This document shows positions 44,018 through 48,088 of a stretch of DNA of 64,000 nt, in pieces. Position numbers and translations under genes: made by a program. This DNA is from an uncultured Candidatus Micrarchaeota archaeon (GTDB taxonomy: Archaea; Micrarchaeota; Micrarchaeia; Micrarchaeales; CABMGC01). The notes beneath the pieces are model-generated. The model did not search any database, was not told where the DNA came from, and worked only from the letters and a program-made list of their open reading frames with translations. Within the stretch, counting starts at the first letter, position 1. Every line of letters begins with the position of its first letter. The stretch is taken from the NCBI GenBank assembly GCA_963833485.1, contig CAWHXT010000005.1, positions 114,845 to 178,844 of the forward strand, given 5' to 3'.

Positions 44018-44139
44018 CGCCAGGGTAGGGATTTGAACCCTAAAGCCCTTGCGGGCACTGGTTCGCTTGTTTTCGCATCACTAATCAGCTCTTGAGAAAA
44101 CCTCAAGACCAGCGCGTTACCAGATTCTGCCACCCTGGC
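44018..44139 (-). tRNA. tRNA-Ser(TGA) with 38-nt intron at 37/38 (44064-44101)
   Basis: GCCAGGG/CCCTGGC-G73, long variable arm GCCC-GCAA-GGGC, CTGGT-CT-TGA-G[intron]A-ACCAG, BHB helix CTTG/CAAG. Confidence 0.93.
44064..44101 (-). ncRNA. Putative intron-encoded minimal C'/D' K-loop guide for Um34 of the host tRNA
   Basis: GUUUUCUCAAGAG-CUGA-UUA-GUGAUGC; guide complementary to tRNA 31-39. Confidence 0.65.
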
Positions 44140-44196: not shown

Positions 44197-44451
44197 TTAA
44201 TGTGCCTGAGCTGCCTGATCTCTTCTTAGTTTCATTTCACTTGCTATTGGATAGGTCTCAAAAAGGATACCTTCAGACTGATCTTCAAACTCCTTCCAAG
44301 TCTCAGCAGGTATCTCGTCAGGGTTGCTGTAACTTTTGACCTTCTCATAAAGCTCCTTAAAGACTGAAGTCCTCAGTGCTTCATCAAGCTTAGGGTCAGC
44401 GGCTATATCTCTTAGCCACCCTGCTCTATCCACGACTTTTTGTCTATACAT
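44197..44451 (-). CDS. Hypothetical protein
   Basis: 84-aa ORF with AT-rich upstream region. Confidence 0.5.
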   Translation of the reverse strand: MYRQKVVDRAGWLRDIAADPKLDEALRTSVFKELYEKVKSYSNPDEIPAETWKEFEDQSEGILFETYPIASEMKLRRDQAAQAH

Positions 44452-44508
44452 AATTTAATTTATGTTGCAAAAATATTTATTCTTTCCGATAATTTTTCTG
44501 AAAAAAAA

Positions 44509-45822
44509 TTATAATTGACGTACAAGGGCTTTTGCTTCTCTCGTAATCTTAAGCGCTACAGGTTCTTTGCCTGCTAGAATCTCTAACGCAGCGCCTCCAG
44601 CTGTCATCCTTCTCCCTCCAAGCTTCTGATATACTTCTCCTAATCCAATATTATCAATCGAATCCGAAGAATTTCCACCTGGAACGAACAGATGTGATTT
44701 TTGGCTCAGAGCTCTATTAAGGATTCTCAATGTTTTATTGCATCCTTCTAGTTCATATCTATCCACAGGTCCGGCAGAGATTATGGTATCAGCACGTTCC
44801 ATCTCAGCAAAAAAGAGATTAAGGGATTCTTCACCTATACTTATTATATTTCCTTTTTTAGTGGAAAGGTCTTCTATCTTTACCTCTTCTTGCGTATCTA
44901 GAAGAAAATCAGTTGGGGATATTATGCGTCCTGGGAAGTCGTGCAAAAGCTTTTCGGCAGTCTCTAAGCCGCCGGTGCTTTGGATAAATTCCAGATTCTC
45001 CTGATTGAAATGCTCCTTAAAATTCACGCATGTTACGGTTTGCCCGGGGACTCCGCCGCACAACGCTATAACATTCTTGTTTCTCGCCAGTATGGGATGG
45101 ATGTTCTCGATTTTTTCAAATTTTGAACCTCCAATTATTAGCACAACGCGCCTTCCAGATTCAAGCTCATTTTTCATCTCGTATATTGTACCTAATTCCT
45201 CCTCCATCTGTCGCCCCAAGTAATAGGGTAGCGAGCCGATTGGACCTACTAGTGATGTGTGCCCTCTATGCATGGATGCAGGGGCATCGTTTTCAAAGAA
45301 ATCGGCAAGTTTTACCAAACGCTGTACCATAGCGCATTTCCTTTGCTCTTCGAGACTTGCAAACTTCCTCTTTTCATCAGGATCCGATCTAGTATTTTTA
45401 AGAAGAAGGGCCTGCCCCTCCTTTAGACTTCTAACTGCTTTTTCTGTTTCTTCTCCACCTAAAGAATTTGAGTATACAACTTCTGTGTTTACTGTGAGTT
45501 TGTTTAGCGCCTGCGCAAGCTGTTCGAGATTTTCTAGGTATTCTGGGTCTCCAGGAGTAGCGTAATGAGTGCATAATATTACCTTTAAGCCTTTTTTAGT
45601 ATCCTTATCTAAATGTCTTGCAACTTCTACAACTCGAAGATTTCTCTCGCTTAGTTTAACGGTAGGGGTGGTCTGCGTAGCTGTAGTTGTTGTTTGGGTA
45701 GAAGCTGTTGATGTAACAGTAACCTGTCCGGGTACGTTCAGATCAACCCTCTTAAGTACTGTTAAACCACTTAACCTATCAATATCCCTGCTCACAAAAA
45801 GGTCGGCGTATTGACTCATCAT
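44509..45822 (-). CDS. pgk: Phosphoglycerate kinase-like protein (divergent)
   Basis: RVDLNVP, LLKNTR, NDA..MHRGHTS, IGGSK, TAGGAALE. Confidence 0.8.
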   Translation of the reverse strand: MMSQYADLFVSRDIDRLSGLTVLKRVDLNVPGQVTVTSTASTQTTTTATQTTPTVKLSERNLRVVEVARHLDKDTKKGLKVILCTHYATPGDPEYLENLEQLAQALNKLTVNTEVVYSNSLGGEETEKAVRSLKEGQALLLKNTRSDPDEKRKFASLEEQRKCAMVQRLVKLADFFENDAPASMHRGHTSLVGPIGSLPYYLGRQMEEELGTIYEMKNELESGRRVVLIIGGSKFEKIENIHPILARNKNVIALCGGVPGQTVTCVNFKEHFNQENLEFIQSTGGLETAEKLLHDFPGRIISPTDFLLDTQEEVKIEDLSTKKGNIISIGEESLNLFFAEMERADTIISAGPVDRYELEGCNKTLRILNRALSQKSHLFVPGGNSSDSIDNIGLGEVYQKLGGRRMTAGGAALEILAGKEPVALKITREAKALVRQL

Positions 45823-45872
45823 CTTATCTAACCCCCTGCTAAGCTAATACTCGCTTTCCATGTTTTTATAAT

Positions 45873-46736
45873 TTATGGATATGTTTTTTTAATAAAATAG
45901 ATGTCCCCCATTGATCTTTTTTCTTCTAACGCGATAGTAAACCCGTTAGATCTTAACAAGTTTTTAACTTGGCTTCGTAATTTTGGACTATGAACCTCAA
46001 CAACAATCTTCTTTATGTTTTTAAGTAACTTTTTGCTAGATTTTAAGACTCTGAACTCTCCGCCTTCTATATCAATTTTTAATAAGTCGATCTTTTTTAT
46101 CTTAAATCTCTTGCAGATTTCCTCTAGGGTTGTTGAATTTAGTTTTACTTTCTTAACATATTCCTGCGCTAACCATGAACGTTTTCCTTGAACCCTGAGG
46201 CCACCTATTGCAGTAACTCCCTTCACAATTTCAAAATTCACCCTTCCTTTGACTTCAGAAACTACGCTATTCACTAATTTTACTTTTAGTTTGTTTGCTT
46301 GCATATTCTTTTTCAAAATTTTAAATGCAACAGGATTAGCTTCAACAGCAATGATTTTAGCTTTGGGTGCTTTTTCTAAAGCTGCTAACGTGAAATATCC
46401 TTCATTACCGCCCAAATCAATGATAATTCTGTCATTTTTAGAAGGAAAACCTGGCAGTTGCTGGTGAGCTCTATCTTTAAAAAGCTCTAGAAAAGTATCA
46501 AGGGAACCTATTTCGTTTTCTTTATTAAACCATAAATTCCATTTTCGTAGCTTTGCCGGGAATTTTTGCCCAGGACTGACTAATATAATATCATTTTTTA
46601 CTCTTGCAGTCCCATTTTGCATCCGTATTAGATAATTCTTTCTTTTTAATTCCTTTTTGAGATTATTGATATATTCGACAGTCTTCTTGTCGTTTGTTTG
46701 CTTCAATGCCCAACCAAAATCTAATTTTAACATCAA
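45873..46736 (-). CDS. FkbM-family SAM methyltransferase
   Basis: IIDLGGNEG, AVEANP, LLKIDIEGGE. Confidence 0.88.
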   Translation of the reverse strand: MMLKLDFGWALKQTNDKKTVEYINNLKKELKRKNYLIRMQNGTARVKNDIILVSPGQKFPAKLRKWNLWFNKENEIGSLDTFLELFKDRAHQQLPGFPSKNDRIIIDLGGNEGYFTLAALEKAPKAKIIAVEANPVAFKILKKNMQANKLKVKLVNSVVSEVKGRVNFEIVKGVTAIGGLRVQGKRSWLAQEYVKKVKLNSTTLEEICKRFKIKKIDLLKIDIEGGEFRVLKSSKKLLKNIKKIVVEVHSPKLRSQVKNLLRSNGFTIALEEKRSMGDIYFIKKTYP

Positions 46737-46764
46737 ACTACTCTCACGTCAAAAAGTGCGTACA

Positions 46765-48027
46765 CTACTCTGAATTTGGTTTTAAGGTAGGTTTTCCTGG
46801 TTCCCACCCTTCCGGGCACAGTTCCCCAGGGTGTGCTCTTGCATATTGAGCTGCAGTTAATTTTCTTAATATTTCTTGCACGTTTCTTCCTATTTTATCT
46901 TCATTCATTTCCATTACCTGCAGAATTCCATCAGGATCGAAGATGAAAGTTGCCCTTACGATAGGATTGCCTTCATTATACACGTGGAATAATTCACATA
47001 CTTCTCCTTTTGGGTCTGATCCCATGGGGTATTTTATTTTCTGTATATTATTAGAGGAAGCCCGCCATGCTATATGTGAATCAATACTATCCATACTGAT
47101 GCTTAAAATCTCCGCTTCTGCAGCCTCAAATTTATCATAATTATCTGCTAATGCTCCCAACTCAGTAGGGCAGACGAAGGTAAAATCTCCTGGATAAAAG
47201 ACGACTACAAGCCATTTACCTTTGTATGCTGCTGAGCTCAGCGTTACGGATTTTGTAAACTGATATGCATTAATTGTGAAATCTGGAAGTTTCTGCCCGA
47301 TTTTTAAAGATTTACTATAATCTGTAGGTAATGATTCAAGAAGAATGCCAGTATTGTCTTCGATACGATAGGGTTTCTTTGTTAGAAGTACGCCGTTTGC
47401 ATCAATCTTTTTTACATTTATCCATCTCTGATTCCTCTCTTCATTGAAACTGAGAATTATGGAGTCTTTTATGGTACGCTCCAGCATGTTTGAAAGGCTT
47501 AGCTGCTTTTTATCAGCAGAGATTTCTGAAGTTATAAATGTAGTAAGAGCATGATTGCTCTCTAACAAAGATACCAGTTCTTTCATGTATGCTAAACAAT
47601 CTGCCTCTGATTCTTCAGAATAACTCAAAAGTGAGTCTATAGAGTCTATTACAAGCCTCTGTGCCCCCAACGAACTAATATGTGTTGATAATAGAGCGAA
47701 CATTTCCTTTGCGCTTAGTATTGGTTTACTGCTTTTGGATACGTAAGGTGATAAGTCTAGAATAACTAATTTGCTGCTTTCTACCCATTTTCTTAAGTTC
47801 CAGCCCATTCTCCCGGCAAGACCAAAAATATCAATTGGTTTTCCAATAGTCGTTGCATAAACGGCATTCTCTCCTTTTTCCAATCCACGATTGATAAATT
47901 GTAGACTAAAAATTGTTTTTCCTGTTTTTGCCTCACCATTTACAAGAAAAACCTTATTTTTCTCTAGACCGCCCCCTAACAGATAATCTAAATCAAGTAT
48001 ACCAGTTTCGATTTTTGAAGCTGTCAT
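46765..48027 (-). CDS. KaiC/RAD55-like ATPase domain fused to AhpC-type 2-Cys peroxiredoxin
   Basis: TGILDLD.LLGGG, GEAKTGKT, LVIDS; then YPGDFTFVCPTE, GRN, GELCPEGW. Confidence 0.9.
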   Translation of the reverse strand: MTASKIETGILDLDYLLGGGLEKNKVFLVNGEAKTGKTIFSLQFINRGLEKGENAVYATTIGKPIDIFGLAGRMGWNLRKWVESSKLVILDLSPYVSKSSKPILSAKEMFALLSTHISSLGAQRLVIDSIDSLLSYSEESEADCLAYMKELVSLLESNHALTTFITSEISADKKQLSLSNMLERTIKDSIILSFNEERNQRWINVKKIDANGVLLTKKPYRIEDNTGILLESLPTDYSKSLKIGQKLPDFTINAYQFTKSVTLSSAAYKGKWLVVVFYPGDFTFVCPTELGALADNYDKFEAAEAEILSISMDSIDSHIAWRASSNNIQKIKYPMGSDPKGEVCELFHVYNEGNPIVRATFIFDPDGILQVMEMNEDKIGRNVQEILRKLTAAQYARAHPGELCPEGWEPGKPTLKPNSE

Positions 48028-48088
48028 TAAAATCGTTAAATAATAGGCAGCAAAATTTAATAAAGGTACTTTTTAACAGACGCTTAGT

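Follow-up and report, generated by a model that had tools for sequence, protein, structure and literature searches.

A stretch of 64,000 nucleotides from the assembled genome of an uncultured Candidatus Micrarchaeota archaeon (GCA_963833485.1, contig CAWHXT010000005.1; hereafter the window) encodes a protein in which a KaiC-like ATPase domain is fused to an AhpC-type 2-Cys peroxiredoxin (Prx). The gene is a single open reading frame (ORF) on the minus strand (46765..48027), which starts with ATG, encodes 420 amino acids (aa) and holds no internal stops. The gene is confirmed as real and undivided, and its host belongs to the Micrarchaeota (DPANN). The function we propose, with an about even chance of being right, is that of a two-module redox enzyme, i.e. 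a working thiol peroxidase tethered to a nucleotide-binding, barely hydrolysing KaiC-like ring, with the states of the two modules coupled. The novelty apparently lies in the combination; the halves are ordinary members of well-known superfamilies, and both score below every curated equivalog cut-off.

A preliminary description of this DNA had read the gene as one 420-aa frame, with a KaiC-type domain carrying Walker A and B motifs followed by a complete AhpC-type Prx. All of these elements were recovered at exact coordinates, and the strand, which that description did not give, is the minus strand. The Pfam profiles KaiC (PF06745, aa 6-228, 131 bits against a cut-off of 26.6, E 5.6e-38), AhpC-TSA (PF00578, aa 243-371, 119.2 bits against 26, E 1.3e-34) and 1-cysPrx_C (PF10417, aa 392-418, 26.2 bits against 21.1) cover the protein in this order. 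Methionines are found at aa 1, 74, 109, 148, 181, 312, 335, 372 and 374, and thus none falls at the junction, as had been noted. The accompanying view that this is one gene rather than two merged ones is now carried by the recurrence of the fusion in 21 further sequences. Together with the E-values, this recurrence places the assignment far beyond chance.

A search of 5.8 billion clustered proteins (303 matches among 8,000 scored candidates, the best 120 listed) gave 20 further chains with both Pfam families at 43-72% identity, originating from JGI, ENA, NCBI and Logan assemblies. The 21st further member, P0022, is an N-terminally cut form with the Prx domain first. Domain profiles detected both domains in 22 of the 265 collected proteins, window protein included; besides the latter, 18 have the order KaiC-Prx and three the order Prx-KaiC (P0017, P0020 and P0022). 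Sixteen full-length members align from end to end (alignment A2). When the profile of these 16 sequences was run with HMMER over 1.84 billion 50%-cluster representatives, five both-domain proteins (P0010, P0019, P0020, P0006 and P0022) appeared among the best 150, with solo KaiC-like and solo Prx proteins ranking below them. A search of the ESM Atlas with the fusion returned no usable match.

The KaiC-Prx family is rare. Among 401 sampled genomes of the window's phylum (two of them, G029 and G198, unpublished), five carry the fusion: the window's own genome, G010, G125, G055, where a contig end cuts it, and G169, where the order is reversed. It was not found in five other genomes of the same genus that were searched. 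All available source names or record titles of members read Candidatus Micrarchaeota. Most genomes of the phylum encode a stand-alone Prx that is about 190-200 aa long and shares 45-52% identity with the Prx half, and G010 and G055 hold one of the same type alongside the fusion. Public annotation names the members 'redoxin domain-containing protein' or 'peroxiredoxin' only. One member of the window's subclade, P0006 (373 aa), has a frameshift in the middle of its Prx domain, so that the gene is a pseudogene or its assembly holds a sequencing error.

The Prx half has the residues of a working peroxidase. It aligns to Salmonella AhpC (1yep, E 9.8e-45) with T283, C286, E289, R358, C404 and W408 under T43, C46, E49, R119, C165 and W169, so that all AhpC catalytic-residue equivalents are present; several of the aligned AhpC positions are named in PDB entry titles. 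P279, T283 and C286 of the P-x3-T-x2-C motif, and likewise the conserved Arg R358, do not vary in alignment A2, and T283, C286, R358 and C404 occur in every KaiC-Prx member having those columns. The resolving C404, with W408 behind it, lies within the PF10417 match. The AhpC-TSA fold is further indicated by a target-normalised TM-score of 0.88 to 1n8j (see below). Still, the AhpC equivalog model TIGR03137 stays below its cut-off (196.1 against 272), and the half is AhpC-like without being filed as an AhpC equivalog. GGLG and YF motifs mark the hyperoxidation-prone type of Prx, which underlies the Prx-SO2/3 rhythm markers; AhpC-type enzymes without them are little prone to over-oxidation. A motif scan of the Prx half found neither motif, and by this measure it is of the robust bacterial AhpC type. 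S317 hardly varies across the family and corresponds to AhpC T77, a residue that is not the same in the AhpC variants 1yep, 1yex, 1yf0 and 1yf1, whose entry titles refer to 'activity and oligomerization'. In the reverse-order member P0020, the resolving Cys is replaced by Ile and FVCPTE by FICSAE; its Prx half may be a 1-Cys enzyme or degenerate.

The KaiC half resembles archaeal single-domain KaiC-like ATPases in consisting of one RecA-like domain, about 230-250 aa long, with both Walker motifs; its best solved sequence relatives are KaiC chains (E 5.7e-27 and weaker). Further motifs begin at aa 60 (TIGK) and aa 206 (KKID). In the HMMER alignment to Synechococcus elongatus KaiC (4dug_A), I61 and G62 lie under E77 and E78, K207 under K224 and D209 under R226; in KaiC these are the catalytic glutamates, the conserved lysine and the arginine finger, respectively. 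Within the family, G31, G36, K37 and T38 are invariant in alignment A2, GKT is retained wherever the column is present, and the acidic Walker B residue is found in 21 of 21 members. The first Glu position is never Glu. At the second (n = 20), Glu occurs 11 times, Asp three times, Lys and Gln once each, and Gly four times; the arginine-finger position (n = 21) holds Arg in 16 members, Lys in one and Asp in four. The Gly/Asp combination belongs to the window protein and its nearest relatives P0002, P0003 and P0006, which are also the sole close relatives of the window's KaiC half in a region-restricted search. Because it is confined to these four related sequences, the degenerate ATPase is a derived trait of a small subclade, and the family looks, from its residues, ancestrally hydrolysis-competent. 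The earlier claim that the Glu pair and the arginine finger are lost is thus correct for the window protein and incorrect as a family-wide trait.

None of the curated KaiC-related models that were compared reaches its cut-off: KaiC_arch_3 scored 97.6 against 249, KaiC_arch_4 78.4 against 248, thermo_KaiC_1 and thermo_KaiC_2 71.7 against 307 and 26.6 against 232, and ArlH 44.1 against 215. The same is true of circadian KaiC (TIGR02655 circ_KaiC, 66.8 against 546; NF006799, 98.1 against 408), from which the window protein also departs in its single domain and in having I61/G62 and D209 in place of the Glu pair and arginine finger.

Both halves have a shared history across the family. In the KaiC-domain tree (66 rows, i.e. 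21 fusion domains plus the 45 that scored best among 115 other proteins with a KaiC hit; P0021, whose KaiC fragment has 123 aa, was excluded), all fusion rows and two solo proteins, P0121 (254 aa) and P0122 (232 aa), form one clade with a Shimodaira-Hasegawa-like approximate likelihood ratio test (SH-aLRT) value of 99. The three Prx-KaiC members group with P0121 (SH-aLRT 96). In the Prx-domain tree (70 rows, i.e. 20 fusion domains plus the 50 that ranked highest among 128 other proteins with a Prx hit; P0006 with its frameshift and P0022 with its Prx remnant of 64 aa were excluded), the fusion rows again form one clade (SH-aLRT 99), separate from the 50 nearest solo Prx. Both trees come from quick IQ-TREE searches with midpoint roots and hence do not give the direction of events. 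Matching subclades appear in the two trees, and the pairwise identities of the halves correlate (r 0.87, 120 pairs). One clade per half with the same subclades indicates that the association arose once and that the halves diverged together, with a single swap of the domain order; two separate fusions of an ancestral gene pair are the alternative. Unlinked KaiC forms exist or arose by fission, as P0121 and P0122 show.

Selection acts on the entire protein. The Nei-Gojobori (NG86) ratios of nonsynonymous to synonymous substitution rates (dN/dS), taken between the window gene and its closest metagenomic copy (L133, 69% identical), are 0.14 (KaiC half), 0.22 (spacer) and 0.09 (Prx half); these values are rough, as dS is 1.1-1.7 overall and, at 1.4-1.7, near saturation in the two halves. 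Both halves are under purifying selection, the degenerate KaiC half included. In the window's subclade, the Glu and Arg are gone and the P-loop, Walker B motif and Lys are kept under selection, and the KaiC half is therefore probably a non-hydrolysing or slowly hydrolysing scaffold or sensor for ATP/ADP.

Structure prediction gives two folds on a flexible connection. An AlphaFold2 (AF2) model built with the 16-sequence alignment has a mean predicted local distance difference test (pLDDT) value of 83.5 and a predicted TM-score (pTM) of 0.76, and consists of two folded domains joined by a floppy linker, with pLDDT below 50 at aa 235-238. In Foldseek comparisons with target-normalised TM-scores, the Prx half matched 1n8j_A (TM-score 0.88, root-mean-square deviation (rmsd) 2.1 Å, 41% identity) and the KaiC half matched the isolated KaiC CI domain 4tla_D (TM-score 0.86, rmsd 3.2 Å). 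Among the listed Foldseek matches, none spans both halves at low rmsd; full-length KaiC chains align to the model at rmsd of about 19-20 Å. A predicted complex of aa 1-234 with aa 239-420, using a 16-row alignment for each, gave a score of 0.24 (mark 0.32), which speaks neither for nor against contact between the halves.

Enzymes of the AhpC/Prx1 type form a disulfide between the peroxidatic Cys and the resolving Cys of a partner chain within an antiparallel dimer. Such dimers assemble further into (alpha2)5/6 toroids that respond to redox state, and activity is higher in the oligomer. Domains of the KaiC family, for their part, assemble as hexameric rings that bind nucleotide between neighbouring subunits. 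In the two-module enzyme that we propose, Cys286 would attack the peroxide and Cys404 of the partner chain would resolve the sulfenic acid, giving an intersubunit disulfide, a chemistry that would require pairing through the Prx domains. The single WCGPC thioredoxin of the genome is the likely reductant. The KaiC-like module is of the kind that assembles into nucleotide-bound hexameric rings, and the fixed-length spacer of 14-16 aa would tie each Prx to one ring subunit. As one chain must satisfy both the Prx and the KaiC symmetry, the simplest geometry would be a D6 dodecamer, in which six Prx dimers connect two KaiC-like hexamers; three Prx dimers on one ring are the alternative. Either geometry would couple the oligomeric and redox state of the peroxidase mechanically to how far the ring is occupied by nucleotide. 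The ring of the window's subclade would act as scaffold or sensor, neither as a motor nor as a kinase. Information may flow in either direction: nucleotide could control the peroxidase, or the ring, and possibly outside partners, could be under the control of oxidation.

Several observations weigh against this proposal. Ring formation by a domain without the interface arginine is an assumption. The two domain orders would put the Prx on opposite faces of the ring, which argues against one precise allosteric interface. Because G010 and G055 have a stand-alone Prx as well, the fusion need not be the housekeeping peroxidase, which fits a regulatory role equally. The position of P0121 and P0122 inside the fusion clade means that covalent linkage is not obligatory. 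The sole clear thioredoxin-reductase-like gene of the genome is split over two overlapping frames (G000:C5:372926-373821; L006 1492-2414) by a 1-nucleotide shift near L006:1990, 3' of the CATC redox motif; the gene is a pseudogene or was misassembled, which matters for the recycling of the Prx. Lastly, scores below the AhpC and KaiC_arch_3 equivalog cut-offs preclude a simple transfer of function.

A bolder reading, which we hold to be doubtful, makes the whole family a covalent redox-to-nucleotide transducer, in which disulfides formed under peroxide in a ring of Prx dimers would switch the attached KaiC-like hexamers in conformation or nucleotide state, or ATP/ADP occupancy would switch the peroxidase. 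If true, genome-reduced DPANN archaea would have a one-protein link between oxidative stress and energy state, and the members that keep Glu and Arg would offer a slow ATPase or autokinase step, possibly a redox-reset timer.

Among other explanations, a redox-signalling hub fares best and is possible but not probable. It comes closest to the redox/nucleotide-sensing switch of the preliminary description, which stays a reasonable hypothesis. Here the Prx would serve chiefly as an H2O2 sensor whose disulfide rearranges the KaiC-like ring and passes the signal to separate partners. Archaeal KaiC-like ATPases are said to have been proposed as signalling hubs, by Makarova et al. in 2017. The stand-alone Prx of G010 and G055 leave room for a specialised fusion, AhpC-type Prx is joined elsewhere to Ser/Thr kinase, cyclic nucleotide monophosphate (cNMP)-binding and LysR domains, and the fusion is the only KaiC-family gene of its genome apart from one weak match. 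Conversely, a partner gene beside the fusion is conserved in none of five contexts (window, G010, G125, G169 and L133), no KaiB was matched in the 75%-complete genome, the Prx is of the robust type without GGLG or YF, and the subclade's ATPase lacks the catalytic residues and hence a phosphorylation or hydrolysis output. With both domain orders, and stand-alone Prx in other carriers, the signalling explanation stays alive.

Less is to be said for ATP-dependent maintenance, in which the KaiC-like domain would reactivate over-oxidised Cys of its Prx in the manner of sulfiredoxin or drive a switch to a holdase chaperone; we regard it as improbable. Sulfiredoxin does repair 2-Cys Prx at the expense of ATP, Prx that act as chaperones exist as well, and most members, keeping one Glu and the arginine finger, could carry out ATP hydrolysis or phosphate transfer. 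Against this, the window's subclade has lost both residues, yet the whole protein is under purifying selection; a Prx of this type is little prone to over-oxidation; and the Pfam search gave no sulfiredoxin similarity.

Very improbable is a function in timekeeping, a minimal redox/nucleotide hourglass or clock that unites the rhythms of KaiC and Prx, in line with the circadian background that the preliminary description cited. A link to circadian timing is not supported. What speaks for it is the identity of the two domain families only, and against it stand the single archaeal KaiC-like domain without a CII phosphorylation module, the low circ_KaiC score, the missing KaiB match in the 75%-complete genome, the loss of the residues for the slow ATPase and kinase activities of KaiC, and a robust AhpC-type Prx. 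The hosts are DPANN archaea, and one named carrier comes from groundwater according to its record title. Beyond family names, the fusion has no bearing on circadian clocks. A gene pair merged by sequencing or assembly error, or a chimeric contig, for which no supporting point was found, is excluded for practical purposes, because 21 further sequences, 43-72% identical and from independent assemblies, show the one frame, which is uninterrupted in G010, G125 and G169, the spacer keeps its length and evolves as coding sequence, and the two domain trees agree.

Comparison with characterised systems places each half. The Prx half resembles AhpC of Salmonella typhimurium and Escherichia coli (1n8j, 4ma9 and 1yep) at about 41% identity over aa 243-418, and shares the short C-terminus without a YF helix. 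Unlike AhpC, it is covalently joined to a 230-aa P-loop domain in an archaeal host, and a search with the thioredoxin-reductase model found no AhpF-type partner (the split gene and one weak match only). The KaiC half shares with KaiC CI (4tla, 4tl7 and 4dug) the RecA-like fold (target-normalised TM-scores 0.86-0.88, 28-29% identity), Walker A, Walker B and the equivalent of K224, whereas cyanobacterial KaiC has two domains, CI and CII, and differs at the catalytic positions described above. In size and fold class it also resembles archaeal PH0284 (2dr3), PH0186 (2zts) and SSO2452 (2w0m; E 9.4e-15 to 1.1e-16), and ArlH/FlaH (4wia and 4yds; E 1.8e-05 to FlaH), although there is no archaellum context at the window fusion. 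Its nearest solo relatives are KaiC-only proteins of 232-254 aa. In contrast to other archaeal KaiC-like ATPases, the KaiC domain of the fusion belongs to a clade of its own, defined by association with Prx. A precedent for the proposed two-ring plan is KaiC-RS (8fwi), in which, according to the entry title, two hexamers are joined via a C-terminal extension. The joining element there is reportedly a coiled coil and not an enzyme domain.

Other Prx fusions among the listed Pfam architectures likewise combine an AhpC/Prx1 domain with a regulatory or redox partner (kinase, cNMP-binding, LysR or glutaredoxin); they represent unrelated lineages, and in none of them is the partner of the KaiC/RecA type. 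In this set of listed matches (P0053, P0070, P0076-P0095, P0081 and P0100-P0116), the fusions to Ser/Thr protein kinase domains measure about 480-495 aa and those to cNMP-binding domains 310 aa, the latter from clusters that count as many as 243 sequences; fusions to a LysR regulator (537 aa) and to glutaredoxin were also seen. A full-text literature search found no description of a KaiC-Prx fusion, in keeping with the earlier statement that none was known, and a prior listing among catalogued archaeal KaiC-like architectures is possible. The oligomeric state of peroxiredoxins follows their redox state, and KaiC-like rings follow their nucleotide state. The fusion is thus a natural system in which to ask whether, and by what route, redox and energy state communicate through quaternary structure, with built-in comparisons in the form of members with and without the catalytic Glu and arginine finger, both domain orders and solo relatives. 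It adds a defined, testable case to the largely uncharacterised archaeal KaiC-like ATPases, and joins the few stress-defence functions that DPANN archaea retain in genomes of about 1 Mb.

Features of the fusion gene and its upstream region, in window coordinates
Feature	Position	Strand	Basis
Whole ORF (stop codon included): KaiC-like domain, 15-aa spacer, AhpC-type 2-Cys peroxiredoxin	46765..48027	-	
KaiC-family (RecA-superfamily) P-loop domain, aa 6-228	47344..48012	-	Pfam; sequence and fold matches
Walker A GEAKTGKT, aa 31-38	47914..47937	-	motif scan; 16-sequence alignment
I61-G62 at the place of KaiC catalytic E77-E78	47842..47847	-	HMMER alignment to 4dug_A; family table
Walker B RLVIDSID, aa 124-131, acidic D128	47635..47658	-	motif scan; family table
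K207-I208-D209 at the place of KaiC K224-L225-R226; Lys kept, arginine finger replaced by Asp	47401..47409	-	
Spacer, aa 229-243	47299..47343	-	length 14-16 aa in 16/16 KaiC-Prx members, sequence variable
AhpC/Prx1-type typical 2-Cys peroxiredoxin domain, aa 243-418	46774..47301	-	Pfam; 1yep; 1n8j_A
Peroxidatic motif FVCPTE (Cys286; motif starts at aa 284)	47161..47178	-	sequence; aligned to AhpC C46
Resolving motif LCPEGW (Cys404; motif starts at aa 403)	46804..46821	-	sequence; aligned to AhpC C165 and W169
A/T-rich TTTATTAAAT box, candidate archaeal TATA element	48055..48064	-	by eye; about 33 nt upstream of ATG

The window's own genome comprises 770 kb in 6 contigs and is 75% complete. It holds no other clear KaiC-family gene, the weak match being a 347-aa frame at 31.6 bits, just over the cut-off. 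KaiB (PF07689) gave no match, and at this completeness its absence is unproven. Apart from the fusion, the Prx set consists of one Bcp-like protein, with no other AhpC-type enzyme. In the window, the fusion lies near genes for phosphoglycerate kinase (PGK), an FkbM methyltransferase, tRNA-Glu, the replication factor C (RFC) large subunit and phenylalanyl-tRNA synthetase (PheRS), housekeeping genes unrelated to it. The TTTATTAAAT box, possibly an archaeal TATA element judging by its letters and place, sits between tRNA-Glu and the fusion ORF.

A conserved gene neighbourhood was not found across the window, G010, G125, G169 and L133 (in G055 the fusion is at a contig end). The neighbours are an HD domain and a phosphoribosyltransferase (PRTase) in G010; a 1148-aa protein without a family assignment and, in convergent orientation, a solo KaiC in G125; a family 2 glycosyltransferase (GT2), a cation efflux protein and a PRTase in G169; an Ig-like repeat protein and a HerA-like protein in G055; and a histidine phosphatase and an enolase in L133. 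Adjacency of separate genes was equally absent: a Prx lay within 6 kb at two of 80 KaiC-like loci taken from genome contigs, both being the fusions themselves. The solo KaiC-like gene of G125 (247 aa, L050 8730-9473) is convergent with the fusion and directly downstream of it. In L133 (1445-3223), the fusion is followed by the histidine-phosphatase gene, of phosphoglycerate-mutase type, and by enolase, and the window fusion is two genes from PGK (44509-45822); this lower-glycolysis neighbourhood of the two copies is loose and unexplained.

Four co-directional genes (44197-48027) form a block between two tRNA genes: an 84-aa ORF, PGK, the FkbM methyltransferase and the fusion. GC content at third codon positions (GC3) is 0.30-0.35 in the three block genes measured (fusion 0.30), against 0.54-0.58 in RFC and PheRS, and with an overall GC of 0.376 the fusion ranks in the bottom 4% among 1,214 windows across the genome. 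Genomes of the same genus share PheRS-RFC-tRNA-Glu and diverge past the tRNA. Composition alone suggests that horizontal acquisition of the fusion is possible. A mobile islet at tRNA-Glu was considered and rejected: neither a repeat of the tRNA-Glu 3' end nor another att-like repeat was found around the block, and a 13-nt repeat proved to be the T-arm common to the second tRNA. The latter gene (44018-44139, minus strand, 122 nt) was detected by Rfam (RF00005, 40.3 bits) and left uncalled by ARAGORN; its sequence suggests an archaeal tRNA of the Ser/Leu type that carries an intron and has a long variable arm.

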